Positions 20,778 through 47,676 of a stretch of DNA of 53,084 nt are shown here, one piece after another. How positions within the stretch are numbered: the stretch's first letter is position 1; the number at the start of each line of letters is the position of its first letter. Source of the DNA: an uncultured bacterium (GTDB lineage Bacteria; Acidobacteriota; Polarisedimenticolia; CBDVAL01); contig CBDVAL010000001.1 of NCBI GenBank assembly GCA_965371955.1, positions 1 to 53,084 on the forward strand. Direction: 5' to 3'. The translations under genes were made by a program, and so were the position numbers. The notes under the pieces are model-generated. The model searched no databases. It was given only the letters and a program-made list of their open reading frames with translations, and was not told where the DNA came from.

Positions 20778-20835
20778 TGTGTCTGAATCAGGGGGAACCC
20801 GCCGGACGGCCGCCCGGCTGCTGAGGAGGGGGTTC

Positions 20836-29800: not shown

Positions 29801-31212
29801 CGCTGGCAACTCTGGTTCACCTGCACTCCAACGATCCCGGCCGGCCCGTCACCACGATCCCGGCGCAAGGGACGGCTGCTGGGCCGCCGGTCGCCATGCT
29901 CGAGCCATCGTCGGTGCAGGCGGCGCTGCCTCCGGACGATCCTCGCGTGCGCGTCAAGACCGTCCGGCTCAGCAACACCGGCAGCAGCGAGCTGGAGTGG
30001 AGCATCAGTCGTCTGACCGCCCGGGTAGCCGCCGCCTCGTCCTGGGCGCCGGAGCCCAAGGGAGACGAATCGCGGAACGGTGACGGTCTGCTCTCCGGTC
30101 CTCGCGCGGCCCGGACCGGCGGCCCGGACCCCGACGGCTACCGATTCCGCGACAGCGACGAGCCGGACGGGCCGCTGTTCTTATGGGTGGAGACGGCCCG
30201 CAGCGGGACGGCCCTGGCTGTGGACGGGGACGACGAGACGTCGGAGCCCGTCCCGCTGGGGTTCGAGTTCCCGTTCTACGACGAGACGTTCACGCAGCTG
30301 CGCATATGCACGAACGGCTGGCTCAGCTTCAGCTCGGACGGGACGCAGTTCAGCAACCCGGACGCGCTGCCCAGCACCAGCCCGGCAGTCCCTCGGTTCC
30401 TGCTGGCGCCGTTCTGGGATGACCTCGACCTGCGCGGCGAGCGCCGCATCAGCTACACGAATGACGCCTCGCGCTTCATCGTGCAATTCACCGGCGTCGA
30501 CCGTTACGCCAGCGATGCCGACCTGACGTTCCAGGTGATTCTCTACCCCAGCGGCCGGATCCTGTTCCAGTATCTCTCCCTGTCCGGCGTCCAGGACAGC
30601 GCCACCGTGGGCATCCAGAACGGTGACGGAACCGCCGGGCTGCTGGCCGGCTACAATGACGGCTACGCTCACGACGGGCTGGCCGTGGAGTTCGCGCCGG
30701 TTCCCGAGTGGGTGCGTATCGAGCCGGCATCGGGTGTAGTGCCCGTCTCTGGCCACACGGACATGGACGTCGTGTTCACTTCCGCCGGTCTCGGGCCGGG
30801 TGACTTCCATGCCGTGCTGGAGGTGTACACCAACGATCCGGCTCATGAGACGCTGGGCGTGGACGCGGTCCTGCACGCCGCCCTGGTGCCACTGGACCGC
30901 TTCGAGATCCTTCCCAGGACGGTGAAGCGTGCGTCGGGCCGCGGGTCCATCCGGATGGACCTACAGCTCCCGCCGGGGTTGGACCCGCGTGACGTGCTCC
31001 TGCCCAGCGTGACCGTGAACGGGTCGCCGCTGCCCGAGGGCGTGCAGGTGTCGTTCCGTGACGGGAACGATGATGGCGTCGAGGAGCTCACCCTGCGCCT
31101 GGACCGGGAGTCGTTCCTTGCCATCGCCGGCGAGAGCGGCATCGTGACGGTCCTCGGTGAGGTGCGCGAGACCACCTGGTTCAGCGGAACCTCCAGTGTC
31201 CGCATCCGCTGA
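20836..31212 (+). CDS. Giant secreted subtilisin-family (S8) serine peptidase, about 3458 aa: I9 propeptide, S8 catalytic domain, Fn3-like domain, then repeated Ig-like (ASH/choice-of-anchor-D-type, SNDP motif) domains and an unknown module, with nested Kelch-like and NIDO-like domains
   Basis: Catalytic triad contexts: VVDTGIDYTHPDL (Asp), HGTHVSGIAGA (His), SGTSMSTPHVSGAAALL (Ser). I chose ATG 20836 because GAGGAGG lies 6 nt upstream and it yields a signal peptide (MVRSPHRGRKWLAWAVLIMVAAALLGTPALA). The track start is GTG 20779. Confidence 0.9.
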   Translation: MVRSPHRGRKWLAWAVLIMVAAALLGTPALAPGPPSSPANHPLPPHRPGEILIKFRHQASPSQRQAIRTDLGAGTRRQLLRGIEHLRLGRGVSIEEALERYRRHPHVLYVEPNYLIQVAVLPDDVEFDRQWGLHNRGQTEGTPGADIGAQEGWNISTGRRDVLLAVVDTGIDYTHPDLADNIWHNPGEIPGNGLDDDGNGFVDDVRGWDFVANDADPMDENGHGTHVSGIAGAAGDNGVGVAGVAWKVSLVPLRALDANGFGDVADSIEAFAYAISIGVRIVNNSWVAPHSQALEDAVQATEDADVLMVAAAGNFGFDLEVDPVYPASFPNDNIVVVTTSNDDDRRPFFASIGSASVDLAAPGVNIFSTVLGGSYGFNSGTSMSTPHVSGAAALLMSVAPNLPASSARRILVQTAEPAEAFSGLTVSSGTVHIGNALSSLDTMAPGAVDDLSVEESFSNSLAMSWTATGDDGEQGAALAYDLRIATTPLDEATFLTGTRIHGVPPPGQAGSRESFEIPDLLHGTSYHVALRAEDDWGNAGPVSNVVTATTLPAPSASLTPITFEASLFTGQSVGTVITLHNAGPGTLDWSIPPPHVIGPTGLEVENVAGVFPAAGRLAAGSAQEITVTLDALGLDGGLYDGTVEIESNDPARPQLLHSSQLTVIDAADMRVRGAQALLESTAPYFFGGGQTSHALPITLPVGGGGTLELAANGNFGRIHELATLHVEGLVLGPVGGQGIDCAPTTAGFPLSPDELQDLVADGVVEVVVQNTITVEVLCNINEHTVRLHYRGPFDHIDFGMVRSGQEREIPFEVENRGSLDLTLQLQLDGSGFSIPWTERTVPAGSTLEVPILFAPGAAGPVQGSLVLSGNDPDTPEFLTTLQGVGEAPPVLEINPELLESTLQAGAGGAHTVTLTNAGGESMDFSLELPAEASFLTAQPEAGIIAAGASQDVTVLLDSSGLTSGLHSAVLAVHTNDPDRPVADIVVNLTVLGGPRLVTSGDLDFGSVVVGATAGLALAVSNPGNDPLEIAAVDSSLPDVIASPASLVLMPQDSATITVQFTPSGTGAIDGTLTVLSNDPDSPATALAVSGSGQEAPSLQVEPVEIQATLLENRSESRVVTLSNAGTGELAYVLTLTPAEPAFASLDVSSGLVPPSSSANVSVLLDSTALAPGPYEAELHVTSNDPATPLLIVPVRLTVVGTPDLFLPGAALMLESQREFFDTNETTTHSLSLTVPPAGEGLVELTADGDFGASFETATASVDGQLLGSAGGAGQDCSVAVASFTLDADRLAELAGDGVISFQVQNSDEVAPFCIANLHRVRLSYRSAPDRLSFDPTFVGGRRDQPFAVENRGTASLEVSLGTDTPDFTPSAGSLSIAPGETRMISVTFAPGSAGPKSGNLLLDSNDPDMPQVLVPLQGMAEPAPVLSVTPPALDVILSEGGQSVGSLQLSNDGGNPLEFSIRRQLLPPVFSQGDPDHPTLGAVERTFQLLSPSPEPLSCIVEDDARGHLYGQAHQGDTFYRYLAVDDAWERLTTAPLNASGGCGAALLDDTVYTAYGFDSSALGAYDIEAGRWSMVDNPLILPSANIASDGERFLYIASGSQLLRIDPISGENTLLSRPPFAFTRLGGLRHSEGILYGHRGSGRTQAASYDIAADQWAILPQLSEGALLGGAFNPVDEEYLAYGPNQGQNLYRYSLRTGAWDATTIPFFSVGHGGMGWLTLPVPGVYFVEGQNGTGLARWVTGSLFASVSPSSGIIPPGSSQSVGVTFDGTGLAPGLHPMNLRIASNDPLRPETATPAELTILGTPELSFVQQALTVESGKLYFTAGGRTEHHLTLDLAPIGGATLALTLEGDFGQAGETATLMVEGLDFGPTQSDGGDCAPVTARFDLSAGNLAVLAADGVLDAEVQNAPGVELLCPVNRHTLRLFYNGKPEVDFGSSFLGVAVERSLTLANTGSATLEAHGLHTDRTEFSVTPQAVTLPPGGSSEISLVFLPGQVQAFDGRLILDSNDPNASHLEIILRGTGVDLPQVGVDPPGLQATVNAGNREQQTLRILNTGGGPLEFSVTLESADNGVPPSDYALLVVSSGIVPAGSHAEVPLVLHGQGVPPGEYLARIVVASNDLQLPRLEVPVTLNIVGAANLQLGGEETTQESRQEYVDAGAFTEHAFALQEDLVGPVLLELESSGDFGNSVENAVVNIEGTVAGSAGNFGEDCISWTRSFVVSRAEMEPIRIDGRLEVRVENTAAVDPRCPDNDHIVRLRTVAPLQRLDFGSVIVSTAQGRTILVDNSGSTALEVTSISSTAPEFSTSSNSLVVAPGASEALTVFFSPPSEGTFDAVMLVDSNDPDGVLEIPLSGSGIGAPRITVDPTLLFTTVAQQEEATLAVQISNGGSGPLEFRIEIPSAGDAFAQAVPAMGTVPPGSTTEVGVRFLAGSLEAGFHLSELQILSNDPDTPAVLVQALLSVVGAPDLSIRESLTLQSIQEFSFPGALTRHSFPVRSMPAGSGTLELIVGGDFSDPAEFAMVQVQGLPRGSLGNTGTDCTTASTDLELTPAEMTSFGQSGNLEVVLTNTEAVQPICSDSFHSVALRYQALVQELDFGEVFLGEQRTLMVDFVNQGGEELQVTALGLDDPAFSISGDPFSLGPGASRALEITFRPDQTGPLGSSLAVESNDPGKEALLTVEGIGREPPVLEIVPAQLESEIFQADSEVQTMVLSNTGGSELSFSLEVDPAVTNTYLQVEPSAGTIPAGGVQLVTVTFDAGEIAPGLFETIILATSNDPEGPAVAIPVALTVIGRPVVQLPRERVTVESAQSYFLQGDRTFHQLPITVPPAGDGMFFITADGDFGLPAEIASASAEGRFLTSVGGLGRDCTAGTGVAPILLADLQALAADGMVELEVENSPVVEAKCEVDQHRIRLVYDGEPFLLDFGTVFVGVEKEHPFLVSNSGSGVLEIASAATDSPEVTVIGLPATILPGESAEILAVYRPSTPGPLATLVHLHSNDPGRPVTTIPAQGTAAGPPVAMLEPSSVQAALPPDDPRVRVKTVRLSNTGSSELEWSISRLTARVAAASSWAPEPKGDESRNGDGLLSGPRAARTGGPDPDGYRFRDSDEPDGPLFLWVETARSGTALAVDGDDETSEPVPLGFEFPFYDETFTQLRICTNGWLSFSSDGTQFSNPDALPSTSPAVPRFLLAPFWDDLDLRGERRISYTNDASRFIVQFTGVDRYASDADLTFQVILYPSGRILFQYLSLSGVQDSATVGIQNGDGTAGLLAGYNDGYAHDGLAVEFAPVPEWVRIEPASGVVPVSGHTDMDVVFTSAGLGPGDFHAVLEVYTNDPAHETLGVDAVLHAALVPLDRFEILPRTVKRASGRGSIRMDLQLPPGLDPRDVLLPSVTVNGSPLPEGVQVSFRDGNDDGVEELTLRLDRESFLAIAGESGIVTVLGEVRETTWFSGTSSVRIR
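25222..26070 (+). other. Kelch/beta-propeller-like insertion nested inside an A-type Ig-like domain of the S8 mega-protein
   Basis: Five to six blades of about 45-50 aa (e.g. TFYRYLAVDDAWERLTTAP, LGAYDIEAGRWSMVDNP, AASYDIAADQWAILPQL, LYRYSLRTGAWDATTIP). They are inserted between ...NPLEFSI and ASVSPSSGIIPPGSSQ..., the two halves of an A unit. Confidence 0.55.
30010..30707 (+). other. NIDO-like (GYxFxDSDEP ... FPFY ... NGWLSF) insertion nested inside the last A-type Ig-like domain
   Basis: DGYRFRDSDEPDGPLFLWVE...PLGFEFPFYDETFTQLRICTNGWLSF...APFWDDL is inserted between ...SELEWSI and WVRIEPASGVVPVSGH.... Confidence 0.5.
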
Positions 31213-32380: not shown

Positions 32381-33249
32381 TCCGAGCGGATGACCACCCG
32401 GTTGAACGCGCCGTCGGAGCGCAGCCGGTAGGCCGGACCGCTCCGCTTGCGGGCGTTGGAGCGGCGGTCCACCAGGTTGATGAAGCCGTCGGTGGAGACG
32501 CGCACCGGGGTGTCCTCGGGCACCACCAGCTCCAGATGGTTGAAGGCGCCCTCCAGGTTCACACGGACGTCGGTCCGGGGCGCTCCCAGGCGCAACGTGA
32601 GATCGTTGAAGGCCCCGTCCAGGTCCACGCGCGTGATCTCGATGGTCTCCAGATCCAGTTCCCCCCCGGAGAACGCGGTCTCCAGCTGCAGCGCCATGGG
32701 CAGGTCGTCGGCCACGTCCACATCCCAGAGGTGCCTCCTGCCGGGCAGGAAGTGAATGCTGCCGGACCGCCAGCGCCCGCCGCGCAGATAGACCCGCGAC
32801 GAGTCGCCGCGATCCGAGACACGCACGCTGCCGCGATTCGACGGTGCCGTGCGTCCCTGGAGCAGCATCCCCGGGGCCACCGAGCCGGCTCGCAGGTCCA
32901 GGTCCGCCAGGGCCATGCGCGCCTCCAGGCTCCAGGACTTCACCTCCGCGTCCCGGACGGCCTGCACCGTCTTCCAGTCCGTGGAGGGCGGTTCGGCGCC
33001 GCGCCATGCCACGTAACTCAGGGTACCCATGAGGAGCAGCGGCGAGAGCAGGACGGCCCAGGGCGCCTTGCTGCGCTCGAACATCAGGCGCAAACCCAGG
33101 GCAATGAGGAGTAACGGCCAGAAAGCCAGCGCATCCATCCAGAAGCCACGATGCAGCATGCCCTGCGTGGAAAGGAAGAAGAACACGCCGAAGCCGATGA
33201 AGCACAGCCCGCGCGAAGCGCGCCGCCACGCGATGCGTGACTCGCTCAT
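32377..33249 (-). CDS. LiaF-like / DUF2154-type membrane protein (cell-envelope stress module)
   Basis: N-terminal TM helices (GLCFIGFGVFFFL, ALAFWPLLLIALGL), then a repetitive beta-strand C-domain (LDLETIEITRVDLDGAFNDLTLRL...VNLEGAFNHLELVVPEDTPVRV). Its stop overlaps the tag start (ATGA). Confidence 0.65.
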   Translation of the reverse strand: MSESRIAWRRASRGLCFIGFGVFFFLSTQGMLHRGFWMDALAFWPLLLIALGLRLMFERSKAPWAVLLSPLLLMGTLSYVAWRGAEPPSTDWKTVQAVRDAEVKSWSLEARMALADLDLRAGSVAPGMLLQGRTAPSNRGSVRVSDRGDSSRVYLRGGRWRSGSIHFLPGRRHLWDVDVADDLPMALQLETAFSGGELDLETIEITRVDLDGAFNDLTLRLGAPRTDVRVNLEGAFNHLELVVPEDTPVRVSTDGFINLVDRRSNARKRSGPAYRLRSDGAFNRVVIRSE

Positions 33250-33731
33250 GCCCTCTCCTCACGGGAGCGCATCAGCATCGACACGCCGATGGCCACCAGG
33301 ATCAGAGGCCACAGGTTTCCGAAGCGCAACCAGTGCGGCCAGTGGAACATCCAGGAGAATCGATCCAGCAGGAACACCAACCCCAGGACGATGAGGACGA
33401 CCCCGCCAATCATGCGGCCGCGGCCCGAGTCCCTCACCTCCCGGACCTCGTCGGCAACTCTCTCTCCAGCCGCGCGCACCTGCTCCCCGGCCGCGCGCAC
33501 CTCTTCCGCCACCTTCTCTCCGGTGGGCGTCTGCTGCGGAACACCTTCTTCATTGGTCGGCATGATCACCCAGCAAATGATGTAGAAAAGGAGCCCGATG
33601 CCGTTGGCCAGGCACAGGAGAACGAAGCCCAAGCGTACCAGCACCGGGTCCACGTTGAAATAGTCGGCGAAGCCGGCGGCCACACCGCCGACCACCGCCT
33701 TGCGTCGATTCCTTGTCAGGCGTTGAGCCAT
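33246..33731 (-). CDS. PspC domain-containing membrane protein
   Basis: MAQRLTRNRRKAVVGGVAAGFADYFNVDPVLVRLGFVLLCLANGIGLLFYIICWVIMP is a canonical PspC domain. Its stop overlaps the liaF-like start. Confidence 0.85.
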   Translation of the reverse strand: MAQRLTRNRRKAVVGGVAAGFADYFNVDPVLVRLGFVLLCLANGIGLLFYIICWVIMPTNEEGVPQQTPTGEKVAEEVRAAGEQVRAAGERVADEVREVRDSGRGRMIGGVVLIVLGLVFLLDRFSWMFHWPHWLRFGNLWPLILVAIGVSMLMRSREERA

Positions 33732-33983
33732 GTTCCCCCCTTCAGCGACAGGTGCCCCTGCCAAGGGGGGCCGTCACTCCAGTCTACGAAATCCGGACCA
33801 CGGACGTTGCATGGACTCCTCCGCGAACCCAGCCGGAGGCGCAAAATCGGTGCAAAACAAGGGTTTCTCGGGCCGGCCGGGTTCTGCTATTCTGGGCCCG
33901 AGGCGGGAGATCCTGCTGAAATCGGTTCTCTTGCTGCTCCTGGCCGGCTACGTCTACTCTTCACTGTTTTCAGGGGGTGGTTG

Positions 33984-34403
33984 ATGCAACAGCACCTGCA
34001 CGAGTTCCTGATCGCCACGACCCGGCGAGGCATGGTGGACTTCACCGCGCAAGTTGCCTCGTGGGTTGCCTCCAGCGGCGTCCGGGAGGGGCTGCTCACG
34101 TTGCACGTCCTGCATACGTCGGCTTCTCTCCTCATCCAGGAAAACGCCGACCCCGCGGTACAGTCGGACATGGAGCGATTTCTCGAGCGGCTGGTGCCGG
34201 ACGGCGATGCCATCTATCGCCACACCGCGGAGGGCCCGGACGACATGTCCTCCCACGTGCGCTCCGCCCTCACGGCCACCAGCCTCTCCATCCCGGTGCA
34301 GGCAGGCCGGCCCACCCTGGGAACCTGGCAGGGGATCTACCTCTACGAACATCGCGTCGCGCCGCATCAGCGGCGTGTCGCGGCGCACCTGTTGGGCGAG
34401 TAG
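33984..34403 (+). CDS. yjbQ: YjbQ/UPF0047 family protein (secondary thiamine-phosphate synthase enzyme family)
   Basis: ...GLLTLHVLHTSASLLIQENADPAV..D...L..LVP...YRH...GPDDMSSHVRSAL...S..IPV..G...LGTWQGIYL.EHR. Only the last 139 codons of the 388-aa track ORF are real. Confidence 0.88.
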   Translation: MQQHLHEFLIATTRRGMVDFTAQVASWVASSGVREGLLTLHVLHTSASLLIQENADPAVQSDMERFLERLVPDGDAIYRHTAEGPDDMSSHVRSALTATSLSIPVQAGRPTLGTWQGIYLYEHRVAPHQRRVAAHLLGE

Positions 34404-34412
34404 AGGAATCGC

Positions 34413-36056
34413 GTGAACCGAACCGAACAACCGGATGTGGCCATCCTGGGCGGCGGACTGGCAGGGCTTTGCCTGGCCATCCAGCTCAAGCGGGAGCGCG
34501 CCGGGACGTCGGTCATCGTCCTGGAGAAGGCCCCCCATCCGCCGCCGGCGGCGGCCCACAAGGTGGGTGAGTCCACGGTGGAGCTGGCGGCGTTCTACTT
34601 CAGCAAGGTCCTGGGGTTGCAAGAGCACCTGGACCGCCACCAGTTGCGCAAGTACGGGCTGCGTTTCTTCTTCCGCAGCAGTGATCCCTCGGAGGACATC
34701 GCCCGCCGGGTGGAGGTGGGAGCCAGCGACTACATGCCGACACCGAGCTACCAACTGGATCGGGGGCTGTTCGAGGCGTTCCTGGCGGAGCACGCCGCCA
34801 CGCTGGGTGTGGAGTTCGTCGACTCCGCCGCCGTCTCCGGGGTGGAGTTGTCGGACGAACCGGCCAGGCATCGCATCCAGTACCGCCACGACGGCAGCGC
34901 GAAACAGCTCCGGCCACGCTGGGTGGTGGATGCCAGCGGCCGGACCAGGCTCCTGGCGCAGCAGCGGAATCTCTCGTCTCCGGTGAGCCACCGCGCCAGC
35001 GCCGTCTGGTTCCGCGTGCAGACACGGCTGAACATCGACGACTGGAGCAGCGCCGCGTTGTGGCGCCGCGACGGCAGGTCGGAAAGATTCTCGCGCTGGT
35101 ACAGCACGAACCATCTCATGGGCCCCGGATACTGGGTGTGGCTCATCCCGCTGGCGTCGGGCGCCACCAGCGTCGGCATCGTCACCGATGAGGCCATGCA
35201 TCCCGTGGGCGGGTACAACACGCTGGACGACGCCATGGACTGGCTCCGCCGGCACGAACCGGCCTGCGCGCAGCACATCGAGCCACACCGCGAGCGCATC
35301 CTGGACTTCAAGGTGATCCGCAGCTACTCCCGCGATGTCACCAGCGTGTTCTCAACGCAGCGCTGGGCGCTCACCGGCGAGGCCGGCGTCTTCGTGGACC
35401 CGTTCTACTCCCCGGGCAGCGACTTCATCGCCATGAGCAACAGCTTCGTGGCCGATCTGATCCGTCGCGACATGGAAGGCGAGCCCATCGCCAAGCGCGC
35501 CCGCATCTACGACCAGCTCTACCTGTCGTACAGCCGCAACACGTTCCCGCTGTTCGAGGGGCAGTATCCCCTGTTCGGCAACCCCCTGGTCATGCCGGTG
35601 AAGGTGGTGTGGGACTTCGCCGCCTACTGGACCTTCCTGGCCTTTGTCTTCTGCCAGGGCAGACTGTGTGACCTGAGCCTGTTCGTCCACACGCGCACCG
35701 GCGTCGGGCGATTGCGCCTGCTGAACGAGAGGATGCAGCGCTTGCTGCGCCAGTGGCATGAGGTGGAGCGGACGACACCGGAACCGGTGTTCCTCGATCT
35801 GACCCGGTTGGAGGTCCTGCCCCGCCTCAACGGCGGACTGACGGACGCGCTCTCCGACGAGGACTACCTGGCGCGCCTGGAGGAGAACATCACCCTGATG
35901 CACTCCCTGGCCGCGGAGATCGCCTGGGTCGCCGGCAACCGTCACCCGTCGCTTCCCGTCGCCGAGTTGGGCGGGGATCAGCCGCCTGCCAGCGCGCACC
36001 TGGAGAAGCTGTTCGACGCCCTCGCCCTGGCTCAGCGCTGCCGGCCGGGCCTCTAG
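34413..36056 (+). CDS. Flavin-dependent halogenase family protein (tryptophan-halogenase-like FAD enzyme)
   Basis: GxGxxG (VAILGGGLAGLCLA), HKVGEST lysine region, WxWxIP motif (GYWVWLIPL) and FVDPFYSPGSDF. GTG start with GAGGAA 4 nt upstream. Confidence 0.8.
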   Translation: MNRTEQPDVAILGGGLAGLCLAIQLKRERAGTSVIVLEKAPHPPPAAAHKVGESTVELAAFYFSKVLGLQEHLDRHQLRKYGLRFFFRSSDPSEDIARRVEVGASDYMPTPSYQLDRGLFEAFLAEHAATLGVEFVDSAAVSGVELSDEPARHRIQYRHDGSAKQLRPRWVVDASGRTRLLAQQRNLSSPVSHRASAVWFRVQTRLNIDDWSSAALWRRDGRSERFSRWYSTNHLMGPGYWVWLIPLASGATSVGIVTDEAMHPVGGYNTLDDAMDWLRRHEPACAQHIEPHRERILDFKVIRSYSRDVTSVFSTQRWALTGEAGVFVDPFYSPGSDFIAMSNSFVADLIRRDMEGEPIAKRARIYDQLYLSYSRNTFPLFEGQYPLFGNPLVMPVKVVWDFAAYWTFLAFVFCQGRLCDLSLFVHTRTGVGRLRLLNERMQRLLRQWHEVERTTPEPVFLDLTRLEVLPRLNGGLTDALSDEDYLARLEENITLMHSLAAEIAWVAGNRHPSLPVAELGGDQPPASAHLEKLFDALALAQRCRPGL

Positions 36057-36059
36057 AAC

Positions 36060-37283
36060 TCAGGCGCGCTCCAGGAACAGCCAGGCCGCTGCGCCGCCCG
36101 AGGCATGCGTGCAGCCCAGCAGGGTTCGTGGCGCATCCAGCGGCGTCCCATCGTGCGGCACGATGCCGAGCGACGGGTCGGGCTCGCGGAACCCGGCGGT
36201 GGGCCCGAACGTGGCGCCCTCCATGGCCAACAACAGGGATGCGAGGTAGCCGCCGCCGTACTCGCCGGTGACGGCCTTGGGCGCCAGGATGGGCGGCAGC
36301 TTCTCCTCACCCCACAGCGCCCGCAGCGTCAGCGCCTCCAACCGATCGCCGGTCACGGCGCCGGACGCGCCGGAGACGATGCGCTGGATCTCGCCGGGCT
36401 GCAGCGACAGGCGGCGCATGGAGGCCGCCATGGAACGCGACAGACCCTGGTGATCGCGGCCCCAGGAGGTTGCCGTCGCCGACGGGTCGTTGGCCTGTCC
36501 CCCGCCACGGATACGCGCAAGAATGCGGGTGTTGTCTCGAAGAGCATCCTCCTCACGCTCGAGCAGGAGCATCGTCGCACCGTCGCCCATGAGAAAGCCG
36601 TTGCGTCCCCGGTCGAACGGACGTGCACTTTCCTCCTCGCCGTCCCGGGCCACGGCCAGCGCGCCGAAGCGGTCCAGGACCGAATGCGACAGAGGATCGT
36701 ACTCGTCCACGACGCCCACCAGCGCCATGTCGGCCCGCCCCGACTCCACCTCGGCAGCACCGCGCAACACGGCGATGAGCGCACCCGCCTCGCGCTGCGT
36801 GAACGTGAAGTTGCCCTCCCGAGCGCCGAAGGCAATGGCGATCTGCGCCGCAGGAGCATTGGCCACCGACTCGGCGAACAGGAAGGGTGACGTGGCCTCC
36901 GGGCCCGAGTCGTTCAGCTCGCGCAGGATGCGCTCGCACAGCGAGGCCGGGCCCAGGCAGGTGGCCATGGAGACCGTCATGCGGCGGCGCCCCAACGAAT
37001 CCTCGTCATGGCCCGCATCCGCCCACGCCATGCGCGCCGCGCCCACGGAATAGCGCGATGACGGACTCATCCGTCGCGCTATGCGCCCGGGAACCCACTG
37101 GCGCAGCTCGCCGGCGTCAACCTGTGCCGCCGTGCGTGCCGAGTCCAGGCGGTGGTAGCCACCGGAACGATCCACCGGCGAGGCCAGTTGCCTGGACTCG
37201 CGCAGCGCCTGCGCCAGACCGGGCCGGCCGCAGCCACCAGGGCCCACCGTCCCCATCCCGGTGATCACCACGCGCGCGCTCAC
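36060..37283 (-). CDS. Beta-ketoacyl synthase-like protein lacking the His-His catalytic pair (chain-length-factor-like KS partner)
   Basis: KS fold (VVITGMGTVGPGG...). The positions matching the KS His residues read GGGQANDP and KAVTGEYGGGY, and the Cys-loop reads MATCLGPAS. GTG 37283 overlaps the upstream KS stop (GTGA). The alternative start is ATG 37301. Confidence 0.78.
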   Translation of the reverse strand: MSARVVITGMGTVGPGGCGRPGLAQALRESRQLASPVDRSGGYHRLDSARTAAQVDAGELRQWVPGRIARRMSPSSRYSVGAARMAWADAGHDEDSLGRRRMTVSMATCLGPASLCERILRELNDSGPEATSPFLFAESVANAPAAQIAIAFGAREGNFTFTQREAGALIAVLRGAAEVESGRADMALVGVVDEYDPLSHSVLDRFGALAVARDGEEESARPFDRGRNGFLMGDGATMLLLEREEDALRDNTRILARIRGGGQANDPSATATSWGRDHQGLSRSMAASMRRLSLQPGEIQRIVSGASGAVTGDRLEALTLRALWGEEKLPPILAPKAVTGEYGGGYLASLLLAMEGATFGPTAGFREPDPSLGIVPHDGTPLDAPRTLLGCTHASGGAAAWLFLERA

Positions 37284-38536
37284 GGTCCTTCCCCATTCCA
37301 TCGCGACAGGATCAGCGCCGCGTTGGCGCCGCCGAAACCGAGGTTGGTGGAGAGCACCGTCCGGACATCCTTCATCACACGCGGCGTCGATCGCACCAGA
37401 TCCAGCGACATCGCCGGATCCAGCGGGGGCTCGGCCGGAACCGGATGCGCCTCGCCTTCCTGCAGGCAGAGCACGCAGACCACCGTCTCCAGGGCGCCTG
37501 CGGCGCCGAGAAGGTGGCCGAACAGCGCCTTGGAGCAGGTCACCGGGATACCGGCTGCGCGCTCGCCGAACACCTGGCGGAAGGCGTTCCACTCCGCGGG
37601 GTCGTTGTGCTCCGTGCCGGTGGCGTGCGCGTTGATCAGATCGACGGCCTCCGGCTCCATCCCCGCGTCGCGCAGGGCCAGGCGGATGGCGTGGGCAGCG
37701 CCGTCGCCGTCCGCATCGGGCGCGGTCATATGGCCGGCATCACAGGAGGTGCCGAAGCCGGACACGGTTGCCAGCGGGCGAGCCCCCCGGGCGCGAGCAT
37801 GCGGCAGCGATTCCAGCACCAGCGCACCGGCGCCCTCGCCCAGGGACATCCCGGCCCGCCGCGCGCGGAACGGACGACAGGGCTCGAGGTCCACGGCGCG
37901 CAACGAGTTGAATCCGGCGTAGGTGAGCTCGCAGAGAGAATCCGCGCCGCCCGCCAGCGCCACCTCCACGGCCCCCGAGCGCACCGCCTGGAGCCCCAGC
38001 CCGACGGCCATGGAACCCGATGCGCATGCCGTGGAGAGCGTCTCCACCGGTCCGCGCACCTGGAAGTGCCGCGCCACCGCGGCACTGGGCCCATCGTTGG
38101 CCGCGGAGGACAGCGCTCCCACCCTGGCACGCCGCGTCGGCTGCTGGCCGTGGGTCTCGGCCAGCATGCGTTCCAGCTCGAACATGCCGCCCGTGCTGCT
38201 GCCCCAGTAGACTCCCACATGCGCTTCGGAGAGCAACGCCCCCAGGTCTGCGTGCTGCACGGACTCGTGCACGGCGGCCACGGCGAAGCGATCCGACCAG
38301 GACAGGCGGCGCGCCTCCTGCGCCGTGAGCGGCAGCGTGGACGGGCCGTCCGGCACCTGGGCCGCCACATGCGAGCGGTGCCGGCTGTGATCGAACCGGT
38401 CGAAGCCGCGGATGGCGGTACGCCCGGCGCGCAGACCGGCCCACAGCGCGCGCCGGCCCCACCCGAAGCCGCTCACCGCGCCGATGCCGGTGACCACGAC
38501 CATGGGTGCCGGCGGGCTGTCAGTTCTGGACGACAT
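37280..38536 (-). CDS. Beta-ketoacyl-[ACP] synthase (FabF/KS-alpha-like, complete Cys-His-His triad)
   Basis: VVVTGIGAVSGFG. Active-site Cys in LSTACASGSMAVG. His in INAHATGTEHND and SKALFGHLLGAAGA. Confidence 0.9.
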   Translation of the reverse strand: MSSRTDSPPAPMVVVTGIGAVSGFGWGRRALWAGLRAGRTAIRGFDRFDHSRHRSHVAAQVPDGPSTLPLTAQEARRLSWSDRFAVAAVHESVQHADLGALLSEAHVGVYWGSSTGGMFELERMLAETHGQQPTRRARVGALSSAANDGPSAAVARHFQVRGPVETLSTACASGSMAVGLGLQAVRSGAVEVALAGGADSLCELTYAGFNSLRAVDLEPCRPFRARRAGMSLGEGAGALVLESLPHARARGARPLATVSGFGTSCDAGHMTAPDADGDGAAHAIRLALRDAGMEPEAVDLINAHATGTEHNDPAEWNAFRQVFGERAAGIPVTCSKALFGHLLGAAGALETVVCVLCLQEGEAHPVPAEPPLDPAMSLDLVRSTPRVMKDVRTVLSTNLGFGGANAALILSRWNGEGP

Positions 38537-38804
38537 GGGCGGTAGCCTTGCACCTCTCCACCAGGTCGGCCAGGGTGCTCACCGATGCGAACGTCTTCGG
38601 CCCGGCCTCGCTGGTGGGGATCTTGATATGGAACGTCCTCTCCAGCCCCACGAGGAGTTCGAGGGCGTCGATGGAGTCGAGACCGAGGCCGCCCTCGAAG
38701 AGCGGCTGATCATCGCCGATCTCCTGCGGAGACAGACCGTCGAGGCGGAGACTCTCCACCACGAGTCTCTTGATGCGATGGCGGGTGTGGCGGTTCTTCG
38801 TCAT
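38520..38804 (-). CDS. Acyl carrier protein
   Basis: GGLGLDSIDALELLVGLE contains the phosphopantetheine-attachment Ser motif. About 94 aa from the internal Met (MTKNRH...). The 3' end overlaps the KS start by 17 nt. Confidence 0.85.
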   Translation of the reverse strand: MTKNRHTRHRIKRLVVESLRLDGLSPQEIGDDQPLFEGGLGLDSIDALELLVGLERTFHIKIPTSEAGPKTFASVSTLADLVERCKATAHVVQN

Positions 38805-38911
38805 GCCGGGTTTCGTTTGCTGGCGCGGGAACACTTGGTCTCTTCGGAGCGGCATCATCTATACTAGCATATCGGTTTGACCATGCACCGGCAGGATCTC
38901 GCAAGGAAACC

Positions 38912-40348
38912 ATGACACACCCCATCCTGGAGAGGTTCGGGCGACTGCTGGAACAGGCGCCCGACAGGACCCTGGTGGCCAATCGCGCGCGGTCCACTTC
39001 GGTGGCGGGCGTCCACGAGATGGCCCGCCGCGCCGAGCGGCGCCTGAAGGATACGTCCCTGCGCGCCGGAGGGCTGCTGGGACTGGTGGCTCCCGCGGGA
39101 CCCGGCTTCCTTGCCGCACTGCTGGCGCTCCGACGGCTGAAGCTGGCCGCACTGCTCCTCGACCCGGACACTCCGCTGAGCGAGCAAGCCAGGGTGGCCC
39201 GTGCCCTGGGAGCACCGTCGCTGCTGACCCTGACATCGGCATGGCCGGAGGCCGAGACGGACTGGGTCATCTCCGCGGTTCCCGGGGTGACTCGACCGGC
39301 CGAGCTGAACGGAGTGGGCGTGGTCAAGCTCACCTCGGGCTCCACCGGCGAGCCCCGGGGCATCGCCACCAGCGAGAGAGCGCTGGTCAGCGATGCCGAT
39401 GCCCTCAACCGGACCATGGGCATCACGCCGGACGACCGCCTTCTGTCCGGCATACCCATGTCGCACTCCTACGGGCTCTCCACCCTGGCCGTCACGGCTC
39501 TCACCCAGGGGACGACGCTCGTCCTGCCGGATGGCCTCGCCCCGTTCGAGCCGTTCCTGGCCGCCGAGGAGCTCGGGGCCACGGTGTTCCCCACCGTCCC
39601 CGCCTTCCTGCACGCGCTGCTGCGCCTGTCGGACCCACCTGCGCAGCCGGCGCGGCTACGGCTGGTGATCTCCGCCGGCGCTCCGCTGACGCCCTCCACG
39701 GCGGTGGAGTTCCGCCGCCGCTTCGGGCTGCCCGTCCATGTCTTCTACGGCGCCAGCGAGTGCGGCGGCATCTGTTACGACCGCGAGGGTTCCGCCGGCG
39801 AGCGCGGCACCGTGGGCACACCGGTGGAGGGTGTCCGCGTCACGCTGGAATCGTCGCACGGATCACTCCCCGGCGCAGTGGTGATCTCCTCGCCGGCGGT
39901 GGCCGAAGGGTACCTTCCCGGGGCGGACAGCAGCCTGGGCGGCGGATGCTTCCGCAGCAAGGACCAGGCGGAATGGCGCGACGGCGAGCTGGCCCTGCGG
40001 GGGCGTCGGGAGGACTGGATCAACGTCGGCGGGAAGAAGGTCAACCCACGGGAGGTGGAGGCCGTTCTGAAGCAACTGGACGGTATCGAGGACGCCGTGG
40101 TGTTCGGCTTCTCCATCCCCGGGCGCGAGGGAGAGGCCGTCCGCGCCGTGGTGGCCGGCACGGGTGTCCCCGGCTATCTGGAAGTGGTGGCCCGCTGCCG
40201 CGACAGCCTGGCGGCGCACAAGGTGCCGCGCAGTGTGCTGGGCGTCCGTGAGATCCCGCGCACCTCGCGAGGCAAGCTCGACTGGAGGCGCATCCGCGCG
40301 CTGGCGCCCGGGCAACGGGGAGGGACTACTCTCCTGGAGGAAGAGTAG
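38912..40348 (+). CDS. AMP-dependent synthetase/ligase (adenylate-forming enzyme, acyl/aryl-ACP or -CoA ligase)
   Basis: LTSGSTGEPRGI (A3), YGASECGG (A5), DWINVGGKKVNPREVE (A8), C-terminal PRTSRGKLD (A10 Lys). AGGAAA RBS before the ATG. Confidence 0.85.
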   Translation: MTHPILERFGRLLEQAPDRTLVANRARSTSVAGVHEMARRAERRLKDTSLRAGGLLGLVAPAGPGFLAALLALRRLKLAALLLDPDTPLSEQARVARALGAPSLLTLTSAWPEAETDWVISAVPGVTRPAELNGVGVVKLTSGSTGEPRGIATSERALVSDADALNRTMGITPDDRLLSGIPMSHSYGLSTLAVTALTQGTTLVLPDGLAPFEPFLAAEELGATVFPTVPAFLHALLRLSDPPAQPARLRLVISAGAPLTPSTAVEFRRRFGLPVHVFYGASECGGICYDREGSAGERGTVGTPVEGVRVTLESSHGSLPGAVVISSPAVAEGYLPGADSSLGGGCFRSKDQAEWRDGELALRGRREDWINVGGKKVNPREVEAVLKQLDGIEDAVVFGFSIPGREGEAVRAVVAGTGVPGYLEVVARCRDSLAAHKVPRSVLGVREIPRTSRGKLDWRRIRALAPGQRGGTTLLEEE

Positions 40349-41291
40349 CTTGTCGCCATTCTGCGTCGGCGATGCGGCTTTCGGGATGGAGGCCGGCCCA
40401 GACGAACCAGTACATCGTCCTTACCGGGATCTCCTCGTTCCTCGCCCAGTCCGGCCCCCCCGAGGAGAACCACGCGCGTGTGGACCCGGTGGATCCCTGG
40501 TGCTCCACCACGATCTCCCGATGGTCCCAGCGCAGGCGCACGACCTGGCGGCCGCTTCCACCCGGCAGGGCCACGGCCACGGCATCCGAACCGTCGCCGG
40601 CGGCAAAGCCGGCCACCTGGGTCTTGCCGGGTAGCCTCGGATCCGGGTTCTCCGTGCCCAGCATTCCCAGCAGGTGCGGCGCCCGGGGATAGAGGACGTG
40701 CTTGAGCTTCCTCCGACCCTTCCAGGGCAGGGCGAGAGTGTCGGGGTGGCGCTCCTTCCAATCGCCCCAGGTGGTCATCTCCGAGACCACAGGCTCGAGG
40801 GCGTTCCCTTCCAGATCACCACGAATGGATCGCCCGGAAGGTTGCGCCCACAGGCTGCCGGTCTGTCGATCCTCGAGCACCAGGGAGTCGTTCCAGAGCT
40901 TGCCGGAATGGACGAAGTCCAGCACGCGCTGGTTCACGCTGCGACCGTAGACCACGGCCGCCCCGGCCAGCGTTCACCAGCTGGCGACGAACGGTTCTCC
41001 TGCATCGCCGTTCACGATCTCGTGACGATCCAGCAATGCCACGGAAATAGCCACGGGTGTATTGCCGCTCAGGAAGCCCAGGATCTTCTCGGAGGAACGC
41101 ATGAGCCGGTCCGCCTGGTCGCCCTTGACGAACTCCGGATCGCTGAGGGACGGGATATCCTCCCGCGGTCGCATGGTGACCAGCCGGCTGTCATGAAGAT
41201 CCTCGGTCTGCAGCGGCTGCGGCAGACAACCGAGCATGACGGCCAGCAGACCCGGAAGCGCCACCTTGGCGCCACGACGGAACGTGCGCAC
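40326..41291 (-). CDS. DUF3179 domain lipoprotein interrupted by a single in-frame TGA (40974-40976): candidate selenocysteine codon, or a pseudogene
   Basis: The two track ORFs (40974-41291 and 40326-40955) are in the same frame. The junction reads ...HEIVNGDAGEPFVASW-TGA-TLAGAAVVYGRSVNQRVLDF...SLVLEDRQTGSLWAQ. The N-terminus has a lipoprotein-like leader (LLAVMLGC). Confidence 0.6.
40936..40976 (-). promoter_or_regulatory. TGA codon plus an immediately downstream imperfect GC-rich hairpin (SECIS-like candidate)
   Basis: mRNA: UGA-ACGCUG-GCCG-G-GGC-GGCCGUG-GUC-UA-CGGU-CG-CAGCGU. Drawn by eye: a 6-bp lower stem, a 4-bp middle stem, a 3-bp upper stem and a 7-nt apical loop. Confidence 0.25.
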
Positions 41292-41347
41292 GGATGGGTT
41301 CGTCCTCCTCTGATTCTACGCAACCGTCGCCGCCGCCGGGTTATTCC

Positions 41348-42970
41348 TCAGCGCGTGATGCGCGACAGCATGTTGCGGCGCAGGACCACCGAGGCGGCGA
41401 GGACCCCCGACATCGCGGCGCTGGTCACGCCCACCACCACCACATCCTGGCCCGTGAGCAGGAGGTTTCTTACCGGCGTGTGGGTGCGTAGCCATGGAAG
41501 CCGGAAACGCTCCGGCGTGTGCTCCAGGCCGTAGATCTCCCCGTACGGGTGGTTGCTGAAATGGCGGGTGGACAGCGGGGTGGATAGCTCCGAGTACTCG
41601 ATGTGATCGCGGGCTTGCGGCGCCACCTCCAGGAACTTGCGCAGCAGACGGTCCGACAGGCGCTGCTTGAACGCCTCGTAGTCCGGACCCCGTCGCTGCC
41701 AGCTGGTGTCGCGCCACGATGCGAACCACTCGTACGGGGCCACGCCGATGACCTGCACCGTGGCCTTCCCCGGCCGCGTCCGCTTCCAGTCCGGATCCTT
41801 GGCCGAGGGGAAGCTGATGTAGGCGAACGGCGGCTCGGCCTCCGGTTCCCGCGCGTAGCGCTCGATGAGGCCGTCGAAGTCGTAGCTGTCGTAGATCCAG
41901 TAGTTCCAGCGCGGCAGATCCAGTGCCGCGTCGGAGCGATCCAGGCCGAGATAGAGGCAGACGTGCGCGTAGGACGGTTTGACGCGCTGCAGGTCGTGCA
42001 GGATGCGGCGGCGCCACGGCCGCTCCTCCTGCACCAGCCGCTGGAACGTATTGCGCGCGCTGGCATTGCTGATCACCACAGGGGCGCGCAGCTCGTCGCC
42101 GTTGGCCATGCGCACCCCCACCGCCTTGCCCCGCTCCACCAGGACGCGGTCCACCTCGGCTGTTGTCGCGACCTGGCCGCCGTGTTCCTGGATGACAGAC
42201 AGCACCGCCTCGTGAATGCTCGATGCACCGCCGCACGGGTAGTTGCCGCCGTCCAGGTAGTGCCGGGCGAGGAGCACGTGCATGGCGAAGCTGCTGCGGC
42301 GTGGGGTCAGACCGTAGTCGCCGCACTGGGCGCACAGGACGCTGATCAGCCTGTCGTTGTCGGTGATGCGGCGCAGCATGTCGTAGGTGGTGACGTCCGA
42401 GTACTTGAGGAAGCCGCGACGCAGGAAGTAGCCGGCCCAGCAGCTCAGGAAGCGCGGCATGGCCCGCTCGCCGAAGTACATCTGCGTGCGCAGGCTGAAC
42501 GAGTCCAGCATCTCGAAGTAGCGCTCGATGGCGACGCGTTCGGCGGGGAAGTAGTCGATGAGCCGCTCGCGCTGCCGGTCGGCCCCGGCAAGGAACTCGT
42601 AGCGCTCGCCGGCGATGATCGCGATGTCGTAGATGTCGCCCAGGGACGCCCATCGCAGCTTGCCACCGGTGATGTAGTCGAAGACCTGGCGCCCCATGGA
42701 CTCCTCGCTGTGCACCTCCCCGACGTAGTGCACACCCACGTCCCAGACAAAGCCCTTCCTGTGAAAGGTGTGGGTGAAGCCACCGGTGACGTAGTGCCGC
42801 TCCAGGACCAGCACCTTCTTGCCGGCCTGCGCAAGCAGCGAAGCGGCGCTCAGGCCGCCCATGCCGCTGCCGATGACGAGGACGTCATAGCTCGCGCGCG
42901 CCAGCCCCGAGTGGTAACGAATGGCCTCGCCGGTCCGGGAAGCGTGCGTTTCTTCTACCAGATCGCTCAT
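41348..42970 (-). CDS. NAD(P)/FAD-dependent oxidoreductase, phytoene desaturase (CrtI) / RetSat-like family
   Basis: Dinucleotide fold YDVLVIGSGMGGLSAASLLAQAGKKVLVLERHYVTGG. C-terminal ...LLLTGQDVVVVGVTSA. I chose the Met at 42970 (GGAG upstream). Confidence 0.85.
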   Translation of the reverse strand: MSDLVEETHASRTGEAIRYHSGLARASYDVLVIGSGMGGLSAASLLAQAGKKVLVLERHYVTGGFTHTFHRKGFVWDVGVHYVGEVHSEESMGRQVFDYITGGKLRWASLGDIYDIAIIAGERYEFLAGADRQRERLIDYFPAERVAIERYFEMLDSFSLRTQMYFGERAMPRFLSCWAGYFLRRGFLKYSDVTTYDMLRRITDNDRLISVLCAQCGDYGLTPRRSSFAMHVLLARHYLDGGNYPCGGASSIHEAVLSVIQEHGGQVATTAEVDRVLVERGKAVGVRMANGDELRAPVVISNASARNTFQRLVQEERPWRRRILHDLQRVKPSYAHVCLYLGLDRSDAALDLPRWNYWIYDSYDFDGLIERYAREPEAEPPFAYISFPSAKDPDWKRTRPGKATVQVIGVAPYEWFASWRDTSWQRRGPDYEAFKQRLSDRLLRKFLEVAPQARDHIEYSELSTPLSTRHFSNHPYGEIYGLEHTPERFRLPWLRTHTPVRNLLLTGQDVVVVGVTSAAMSGVLAASVVLRRNMLSRITR

Positions 42971-47337: not shown

Positions 47338-47676
47338 ATGAAGATCCAGGTGCGCAAGAAGGGCAGCGTCAATATCCTCGAGATGGCCGGGAAGATGATC
47401 ATCGGCGAGGGAGACGTGTTGCTGCGCGACACTGTACTCGGCCTGCTGGACCAGGGCGAGCGGTTGTTCATCTTCGACATGCTGCTGGTGACCTGGCTGG
47501 ACAGCGGCAGCGTGGGTGAGGTGGTGGCATGCTACAAACGTGCCGTGGCGCTGGACGGCGACATCAAGCTGGTGCTGCAAGGTCGTGCCCACGACGTCTT
47601 CACCACGTTCAGCCTCAACAAGGTCTTCGAGATTGCGCCGGATCTAGAGACGGCGCTGGCCAGCTTCGCCACGTGA
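47338..47676 (+). CDS. STAS domain protein (anti-sigma-factor antagonist, SpoIIAA/RsbV-like)
   Basis: 112 aa. ...LEMAGKMIIGEG...LFIFDMLLVTWLDSGSVGEVV... The conserved DS(G/S) loop holds the phosphorylatable Ser. Confidence 0.78.
   Translation: MKIQVRKKGSVNILEMAGKMIIGEGDVLLRDTVLGLLDQGERLFIFDMLLVTWLDSGSVGEVVACYKRAVALDGDIKLVLQGRAHDVFTTFSLNKVFEIAPDLETALASFAT

Follow-up and report, generated by a model that had tools for sequence, protein, structure and literature searches.

A compact ketosynthase-halogenase locus of an uncultured Acidobacteriota bacterium, probably a reduced form of aryl polyene-like type II polyketide synthase clusters

What can a bacterium make with a ketosynthase (KS), a chain length factor (CLF)-like KS partner, an acyl carrier protein (ACP), an adenylate-forming ligase and a flavin-dependent halogenase when no ketoreductase (KR), dehydratase (DH), cyclase or thioesterase is encoded nearby? 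This question is raised by an 8.6 kb locus (positions 34413-42970) in the 53,084-nucleotide stretch of contig CBDVAL010000001.1 from an uncultured Acidobacteriota bacterium that was analyzed in full here (hereinafter, the window). Gene families were assigned by Pfam and NCBIfam profile scans of the window proteins, which recovered all genes of the initial annotation of this locus at the same positions and on the same strands. The locus is a genuine mini gene cluster that is both conserved and under selection, and it is a reduced form of aryl polyene (APE)-like type II polyketide synthase (PKS) clusters rather than a new kind of system. More specifically, the interpretation that we favor, with guarded confidence, is that the region is functional and represents a lineage-specific, trimmed derivative of a widespread APE-like reducing type II PKS cluster, in which a priming and elongation core is combined with an acquired xanthomonadin-type halogenase, and KR and DH are supplied in trans. 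The product is probably a halogenated small polyketide made with the help of enzymes encoded elsewhere.

The initial annotation described the cluster as an orphan, a designation that does not hold for its core. The CLF-like protein has more than 2000 homologs with 50-57% identity, and the named ones come mostly from metagenome-assembled genomes (MAGs) of Acidobacteriota (Thermoanaerobaculia, Vicinamibacteria and Holophagales) and Planctomycetota. We fetched about 170 homologous loci (denoted L001 and so on) and mapped 23 reference proteins onto them. The arrangement with divergent ligase and ACP genes is common to more than 100 loci, and the typical order in the full-type clusters is methyltransferase, polysaccharide deacetylase and ligase, divergent from ACP, KS, CLF, family 2 glycosyltransferase (GT2), KR, MMPL and LpxL-type acyltransferase, often followed by genes for ApeP-like and ApeI-like dehydratases and a halogenase of about 440 aa (Pfam). 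A GT2 and/or KR gene is present in 110 of the 118 loci with at least 2.5 kb of sequence downstream of the CLF gene. The ligase, ACP, KS and CLF of the window are 65-69% identical to those of L001 and 53-57% identical to those of other family loci; the KS in particular shows 55-70% identity to the KS of APE-like family loci versus 35-44% to xanthomonadin-type KS. Judging from gene content and sequence comparison, the family appears to consist of APE-like reducing type II PKS/lipid clusters and to be a sister of the canonical APE clusters rather than a part of them, because the CLF is full length and the KS is no closer to ApeO than to FabF. Compared with the APE-like clusters of Acidobacteriota and Planctomycetota (L001, L002/L017 and L003), the window contains orthologous genes for the ligase, ACP, KS and full-length CLF in an identical divergent layout, but has no deacetylase, methyltransferase, GT2, KR, MMPL or LpxL-type acyltransferase and neither of the two dehydratases; instead, it has a different, longer halogenase and a RetSat-like neighbor.

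The three core genes on the minus strand are translationally coupled, as initially noted. The ACP gene (38520-38804; about 94 aa from the ATG at 38804, with the longest open reading frame (ORF) starting at 38858) encodes a Pfam PP-binding protein with the Ser within LGLDSID; its best NCBIfam match is PRK09184, under the cut-off of that model. This gene overlaps by 17 nt the gene of the active KS (37280-38536, minus strand; 418 aa), the stop codon of which overlaps the GTG start codon of the CLF gene (36060-37283, minus strand; 407 aa) in the sequence GTGA. The KS, identified by Pfam and NCBIfam, retains the complete triad Cys171, His304 and His341. In the alignment, the corresponding columns of the CLF, which contains both the N-terminal and the C-terminal Pfam ketoacyl-synt domains, are Glu165, Gly305 and Glu341 in place of Cys, His and His, so that the loss of both His residues that had been reported is accompanied by the loss of the Cys. 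The CLF-like partner is thus predicted to be catalytically dead. The QREAG motif that is conserved across the CLF family is also present in the window CLF.

The ligase gene (38912-40348, plus strand; 478 aa) is transcribed divergently from the ACP-KS-CLF operon, from which it is separated by an intergenic region (38805-38911) that presumably contains the promoters for both directions, given the conserved divergent layout. As previously assigned, the protein is an ANL (adenylate-forming) ligase (Pfam AMP-binding and AMP-binding_C) with the core motifs TSGSTG and YGASE and the C-terminal SRGK, and shows 67% identity to the ligase of L001 and 53% identity to that of L002. It is presumed to be a ligase that links the starter acid to the ACP.

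Comparison of the KS with solved structures gives scores of about 236 bits for FabF, 230.6 for 6KXD (named 'Ketosynthase', which we take to be Iga11) and 159.7 for Xenorhabdus doucetiae ApeO (6QSP). With the actinorhodin KS-alpha included, all these proteins fall within 160-237 bits against the window KS. These scores are uninformative for the placement of the KS, and therefore synteny and family identity were used for this purpose. The position of Iga11 Asp113 is occupied by Thr in 131 of the 134 family KS, in compact and full clusters alike, and this column is accordingly uninformative on reducing behavior. Two other assignments of the KS-CLF pair were considered and rejected. A cispentacin-type AmcF/AmcG identity does not hold because the KS reaches only 225 bits where the cut-off is 325, and FabF gives it a higher score. 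An aromatic (non-reducing) type II PKS is contradicted by the CLF Glu165 in place of the active-site Gln, and the window encodes no aromatase or cyclase.

The compact arrangement itself is conserved in relatives. Four loci (L004, L090, L094 and L095) show about 93% nucleotide identity to the window and the same arrangement, and L090 also shares the right flank. At 74-79% nucleotide identity, L091 contains the CrtI-like and ligase genes divergent from ACP-KS-CLF, with genes for FG-GAP proteins outside the CrtI-like gene, and at about 70%, L006 contains a KS-CLF pair next to which the same long halogenase is encoded convergently (54% identity across the C-terminal part). Synteny is thus retained from about 93% down to about 70% nucleotide identity. 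Among contigs of species genomes, a scan with the CLF alignment gave no relative with more than 56% identity and a scan with the single CLF found none; a scan of metagenomes added only two relatives at about 93%, both on short contigs. The compact cluster is under purifying selection: the ratio of nonsynonymous to synonymous substitution rates (dN/dS) is 0.16-0.39 for every cluster gene at dS of 0.1-1.0, and 0.11 for the neighboring symporter gene. In a neighbor-joining tree of 66 CLFs (a thinned set) rooted on KS, with 40 bootstrap replicates, the compact clade together with the full-type L001 is recovered in 40 of the 40 replicates and is nested among full-type loci, and so the compact form was derived from a full cluster by loss and replacement. 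Of the CLF columns with at least 95% conservation in full-type loci, only two are different in the compact clade, and the full-type L001 shares both, so that the KS-CLF chemistry is probably unchanged.

An additional case of reduction is seen in an Acidobacteriota MAG (L058:7322-11227), where only ligase, KS and CLF genes are found, all in the same orientation; the 10 kb on either side contain neither a halogenase nor KR, DH or GT2. This locus is another, independently reduced form of the cluster.

The halogenase (34413-36056, plus strand; 547 aa; Pfam Trp_halogenase and FAD_binding_3), convergent with the CLF gene, had been predicted to be a flavin-dependent enzyme from its GxGxxG and WxWxIP motifs. 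These motifs are confirmed as GGGLAG at position 13 and WVWLIP at position 241, and a further motif, FVDPFYSPG (FxDPxFSxG), is found at 327. Lys80 (in LRKYG) aligns with the catalytic Lys of CmlS, the second Lys of 'VKK' (Lys71, counted on the tagged chain). The best solved-structure matches are CmlS, PltA and other flavin-dependent halogenases; among the 16 matches listed, all are such halogenases except 3nix, which is named only 'Flavoprotein/dehydrogenase'. With the FAD motif, WxWxIP and the catalytic Lys all in place, the protein has the sequence signature of a flavin-dependent halogenase.

This halogenase belongs to a 'long' type, with a C-terminal extension of about 190 aa, and shares no more than 26% identity with the short L001 halogenase. 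The long-halogenase family is very large, with named members from Xanthomonadales, Steroidobacter and Sulfidibacter. Three relatives with 50-53% identity could be placed in their genomic context, and these loci (L007-L010) are of the xanthomonadin/APE type. Two of the three lie directly upstream of a KS gene and a short Ketoacyl-synt_2 CLF gene, in clusters where a further KS and a second halogenase are encoded along with DUF3261, LolA and ApeP-like proteins. The remaining relative, from Tahibacter, is located in a group that runs from KS, CLF and GT2 to the halogenase. In the xanthomonadin clusters of Xanthomonas, the halogenase gene likewise adjoins the KS/ORF16 pair (PMC3691225). The convergent halogenase/CLF arrangement of the window recurs in L004 and L006. 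Because the relatives of the long halogenase are found in xanthomonadin/APE-type loci, the window cluster is chimeric, with an Acidobacteriota-type priming and elongation core and a xanthomonadin-type halogenase.

The absence of the remaining pathway genes, pointed out in the initial annotation, extends across the whole window. A tblastn search with the KR, ApeP, ApeI, GT2, MMPL, LpxL, deacetylase and methyltransferase of sister clusters yielded no match with E<1 in the 53 kb, and Pfam analysis of the ORFs with high GC content at third codon positions identified no thioesterase, acyltransferase, exporter, LolA-like protein, cyclase or aromatase there; the remaining ORFs of this kind belong to unrelated Pfam families. 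A KR acting in trans is plausible in this family because KR is missing from otherwise fuller clusters of Planctomycetota. Specifically, among the 67 loci where the CLF gene is flanked by 6 kb or more in each direction, 8 have no KR, and 4 of these 8 (L016, L046, L047 and L053) are fuller clusters in Planctomycetota MAGs, which include GT2, LpxL, MMPL and two halogenases, with no KR within 10 kb on either side. Dehydratases are retained in L016, L046 and L053. This pattern suggests that keto-reduction occurs in trans in the KR-less Planctomycetota lineage.

Under the favored interpretation, the ANL ligase would adenylate a carboxylic acid starter and load it onto the dedicated ACP; by analogy with the APE and xanthomonadin pathways, the starter would most likely be a hydroxybenzoate. 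The KS, together with the dead full-length CLF, would then extend the chain with malonyl units, presumably loaded by FabD (malonyl-CoA:ACP transacylase), given that the cluster is devoid of an acyltransferase. The halogenase might place chlorine or bromine on the tethered intermediate, either at an electron-rich aryl ring or at an activated carbon, with FADH2 provided by an unlinked reductase. Keto-reduction and dehydration would be performed in trans by FabG/FabZ or by unlinked APE-type KR and DH, to give a halogenated aryl-(poly)enoyl chain, in which the RetSat-like flavoenzyme may, speculatively, saturate or desaturate one C=C bond. As initially stated, the product cannot be predicted from known cluster logic.

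Several known systems resemble parts of this scheme. Xanthomonadin and xanthomonadin-like clusters of Xanthomonas and Lysobacter share the priming by an AMP-ligase and ACP and a KS with an inactive partner (PMC3691225). In contrast to the full-length CLF of the window, the CLF in the xanthomonadin-type loci L007-L010, the only loci where short CLFs occur, is a Ketoacyl-synt_2 protein of about 260 aa, and these clusters carry KR, two dehydratases and export genes of the LolA/DUF3261/MMPL type, none of which are present in the window. The canonical APE clusters of E. coli, Xenorhabdus and Acinetobacter (ApeA-R) share a stand-alone KS:CLF, a dedicated ACP and an adenylating ligase in the role of ApeH (PMC8358021, PMC8253772), but the CLF of these clusters is the half-size ApeC (PMC8358021). 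Thus, of the defining components of a canonical APE cluster, the window contains a KS, an inactive CLF and an ACP, but not a short CLF, a KR (ApeQ), a DH pair (ApeI/ApeP), lipid-anchoring and export genes or a thioesterase; ApeR, ApeK, ApeD, ApeJ, ApeL and ApeM have no counterparts either, and there is one ACP rather than two. The originally proposed resemblance to the core of halogenated aryl polyene clusters is supported, in that the relatives lie in APE-like and xanthomonadin-type clusters, with the qualification that the family is APE-like rather than canonical APE. Three findings that the initial annotation had named as contrary to its interpretation were not obtained: the KS pair is not of the housekeeping type, the genes are syntenic in relatives, and the halogenase has its catalytic Lys. 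The highly reducing type II PKS for ishigamide in actinomycetes (Iga10-Iga13 and Iga16) shares a full-length KS, a full-length CLF and a discrete ACP (PMC8358021). KR and DH are, however, part of the Iga system itself, which uses no aryl starter primed by a ligase, contains no halogenase and differs by Iga11 Asp113 versus the Thr of the family. A different parallel is provided by the pyoluteorin proteins PltF, PltL and PltA, where, as in the window, an adenylating ligase is encoded together with a carrier protein and a halogenase of the flavin-dependent type. PltF/PltL/PltA perform carrier protein-tethered halogenation: proline is loaded and a dehydrogenase forms the pyrrole, with no KS-CLF coupling. 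This similarity suggests, by analogy, halogenation of a tethered substrate in the present case; the match between the window halogenase and PltA is low, at 56.6 bits.

Several observations weigh against the derivation of the locus from an APE-like reducing cluster served in trans. Neither KR and DH nor a thioesterase, an acyltransferase or an exporter is encoded in the 53 kb, and both the supply of KR and DH in trans and the acceptance of the window ACP by FabG/FabZ are assumptions. Among the NCBIfam models and solved structures, the ligase matches generic ANL only, and no specific acid is assignable. No chorismate lyase, XanB2 or TAL (tyrosine ammonia-lyase) gene is present in the window or in the Pfam-annotated sister clusters L001-L003. 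The APE chemistry is carried over by analogy, through the ApeI/ApeP-like dehydratases of the sister clusters, and the full length of the CLF and the lower score of the KS with Xenorhabdus ApeO than with FabF (159.7 versus about 236 bits) add to the distance. Finally, the monophyly of the compact clade alone is recovered in 22 of the 40 bootstrap replicates.

The foremost alternative, possible in our view but unlikely, is that the ligase, ACP, KS, CLF and halogenase constitute a complete pathway, an autonomous and recurrently evolved minimal type II PKS with a free, halogenated aryl- or acyl-ketide as its product, either unreduced or only partly reduced. Condensation by the KS-CLF, once or a few times, on the loaded starter would give a beta-keto(poly)acyl-ACP that is halogenated at an activated methylene or at the aryl ring and released by spontaneous hydrolysis or by pyrone- or resorcinol-type cyclization, yielding a small halogenated ketide, such as an alpha-halo-beta-keto acid, a pyrone or a resorcinol-like compound, rather than a membrane-anchored polyene; the RetSat-like enzyme would contribute an extra tailoring step. 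Consistent with this possibility, the five-gene set is found without nearby KR, DH, GT, acyltransferase or MMPL genes in three deep lineages. In addition to the window clade, ACP-KS-CLF-long halogenase sets lacking nearby KR and DH are present in L164/L165 and in L085, from a Planctomycetota MAG, the CLFs of which show at most about 55% identity to those of any other locus; L164 has a divergent ligase gene, and genes for an M28 peptidase and a sulfatase come after its set. The contigs of L085, L006 and L094 are short, however, so that only in the window and L164 is it proven that neighboring genes are absent. The purifying selection on the cluster agrees with an autonomous function, and the joint loss of all lipid-anchoring and export genes would be expected if the product is not an outer-membrane lipid. 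Furthermore, among the best single matches of the halogenase is CmlS, which reportedly acts on an activated non-aromatic carbon. On the other hand, the compact KS and CLF show no clade-specific changes compared with L001, which itself has KR and lipid-anchoring genes, no thioesterase or cyclase is available for release, and the CLF has Glu rather than the Gln of the chain-initiation factors of aromatic type II PKS.

A somewhat less probable scenario is that the same genome contains a second, complete APE-like cluster with the locus as its satellite, that is, one part of a split or duplicated standard pathway in which the compact set feeds a halogenated primer or chain to the KR, DH, GT, acyltransferase and MMPL of the full cluster. 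The closest full-type cluster, L001, with 65-69% identity in the ligase, ACP, KS and CLF, groups with the compact clade in all 40 bootstrap replicates. L001 comes from the ZHEN22-1 metagenome series, as does L004, a 94% relative of the window, and has a GC content of 0.675 versus 0.671-0.685. Moreover, in Xanthomonadales loci such as L010, a KS-CLF-GT2-halogenase group is located apart from the rest of the pathway. A shared sample series and similar GC content are, however, weak indicators that L001 and the compact cluster share a genome, and the dS of about 1.1 fits an ortholog in a related organism equally well.

That a full APE-like cluster has decayed here and left a remnant without present function is improbable. 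At least 8 genes that are nearly universal in the family have been lost, and in the window lineage, an unrelated DUF3179 gene has been inserted between the CrtI-like and ligase genes. Nevertheless, all reading frames are intact and the catalytic motifs are kept, dN/dS stays at 0.16-0.39 even at dS of 0.6-1.0, and the compact arrangement is maintained down to about 70% nucleotide identity and recurs in other lineages. Housekeeping fatty acid synthesis genes, that is, a FabF/FabB pair with AcpP, are a highly improbable identity for the core: the top NCBIfam and solved-structure matches of the KS are of the FabF type, but all are under the curated cut-offs (339.6 bits versus 493.75 for TIGR03150, FabF), the KS partner lacks the Cys, His and His, there is no fabD, fabG, fabZ or other fab neighbor, and the nearest KS relatives (55-70% identity) are all encoded in APE-like secondary metabolite clusters.

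Two further genes that the initial annotation included in the cluster, coding for a CrtI-like protein and a DUF3179 protein, are indeed present; the former is only weakly tied to the cluster and the latter lies outside its conserved part. The CrtI/RetSat-like FAD oxidoreductase (41348-42970, minus strand; about 540 aa from Met20; Pfam Amino_oxidase) scores 124.1 bits with crtI_fam (cut-off 238.1) and 144.2 bits with carot_isom (CRTISO; cut-off 586.9), and no carotenoid genes are found near it, so that the protein does not qualify as a CrtI/phytoene desaturase. Its homologs in the broad family are annotated by JGI as 'all-trans-retinol 13,14-reductase'. The RetSat-like gene adjoins the ligase gene in L090 (95% identity) and L091 (79%), with a different outer flank in L091, and is not linked to the cluster in L092/L093 (68%). 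A homolog with 56% identity from Cytophagaceae is located amid housekeeping genes, and hence there is no general link between RetSat-like proteins and PKS clusters. The gene might encode an accessory enzyme of the cluster, and its membership is uncertain.

The DUF3179 gene (40326-41291, minus strand) contains an in-frame TGA (40974-40976), and the Pfam DUF3179 match (148.9 bits) spans this codon. The gene is missing from L090, where about 9 bp correspond to 1,052 bp of the window, and from L091, which identifies it as a lineage-specific insertion outside the conserved cluster. A DUF3179 homolog in L139 (53% identity) has a stop at the same column as the window TGA, and in both genes, the UGA is followed, at a distance of about 24 nt, by a GC-rich, SECIS-like hairpin with GGUC as its apical loop. 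Selenoproteins with a UxxC/T motif are on record for the DUF3179 family (PMC9312934); the window protein has U-T-L-A, with Ala instead of Cys/Thr at the second position of that motif. Given the shared stop column, the hairpin and the membership in a listed family, the DUF3179 gene probably encodes a selenoprotein of a known family and is no pseudogene. The L139 gene (12638-13516, minus strand), the only other DUF3179 homolog among the approximately 170 loci, also with the UGA, is located immediately upstream of the genes for ApeI/ApeP-like dehydratases in an APE-like cluster of the full type. These two independent juxtapositions of a selenocysteine-encoding DUF3179 gene with an APE-like cluster could be due to chance or to a functional link.

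APE-type clusters are described as the bacterial biosynthetic gene cluster family with the widest distribution (PMC8253772), and the branch in Acidobacteriota and Planctomycetota with the full-length CLF has no characterized product. The compact form implies either that trans-acting KR and DH are routinely borrowed by these type II systems or that a different, smaller halogenated product is made. Owing to its size of 8.6 kb, the locus could be expressed as a single construct, which offers a handle on the substrate of the ligase and the target of the xanthomonadin-type halogenase. If the locus does make a halogenated ketide autonomously, it would represent a compact type of halogenated polyketide pathway not described so far.

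The third-position GC content of 0.79-0.90 supports all seven ORFs of the locus as real genes (67% GC for the window). Two pairs of convergent genes are packed end to end: the stop codons of the halogenase and CLF genes are 3 bp apart (36054-36062), and the ligase gene extends 23 bp into the DUF3179 gene (40326-40348), leaving no room for terminators between the 3' ends of either pair. Beyond the CLF gene and the convergent long halogenase, the left flank contains genes for YjbQ, PspC and LiaF-like proteins, an adenine glycosylase, DUF4136 and a 3477-aa S8 protease. On the right, the cluster is followed by genes for a Na/Ala symporter, a BNR-like protein, an AhpC/TSA redoxin, MsrA, a GNAT protein and M14 peptidases. 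No RNA family of Rfam reaches the gathering score anywhere in the 53 kb window. The YjbQ/UPF0047 ORF (33237-34403, plus strand) is over-extended: the family match is limited to the last 130 or so codons, whereas a genuine gene for a PspC-domain protein, encoded on the other strand (33246-33764), overlaps the upstream part.

Several large proteins are encoded elsewhere in the window. The S8 protease (20779-31212, plus strand), a single ORF, is a subtilase with a fervidolysin-like prodomain, in which the prodomain and protease are followed by many HYDIN/ASH/Cep192-type Ig-like repeats and DUF1573. A 1580-aa protein with FG-GAP, DUF4215 and TSP3 repeats is encoded at 10913-15655 (plus strand), and a Ser/Thr kinase fused to TPR repeats at 16541-18937 (minus strand); genes of this sort recall soil bacteria with large genomes, Myxococcota-like or similar. 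Finally, the M14 region (47529-52897, plus strand) contains genes for two tandem proteins of about 900 aa, each with an N-terminal M14 zinc-carboxypeptidase domain, the first of which also contains DUF4350.

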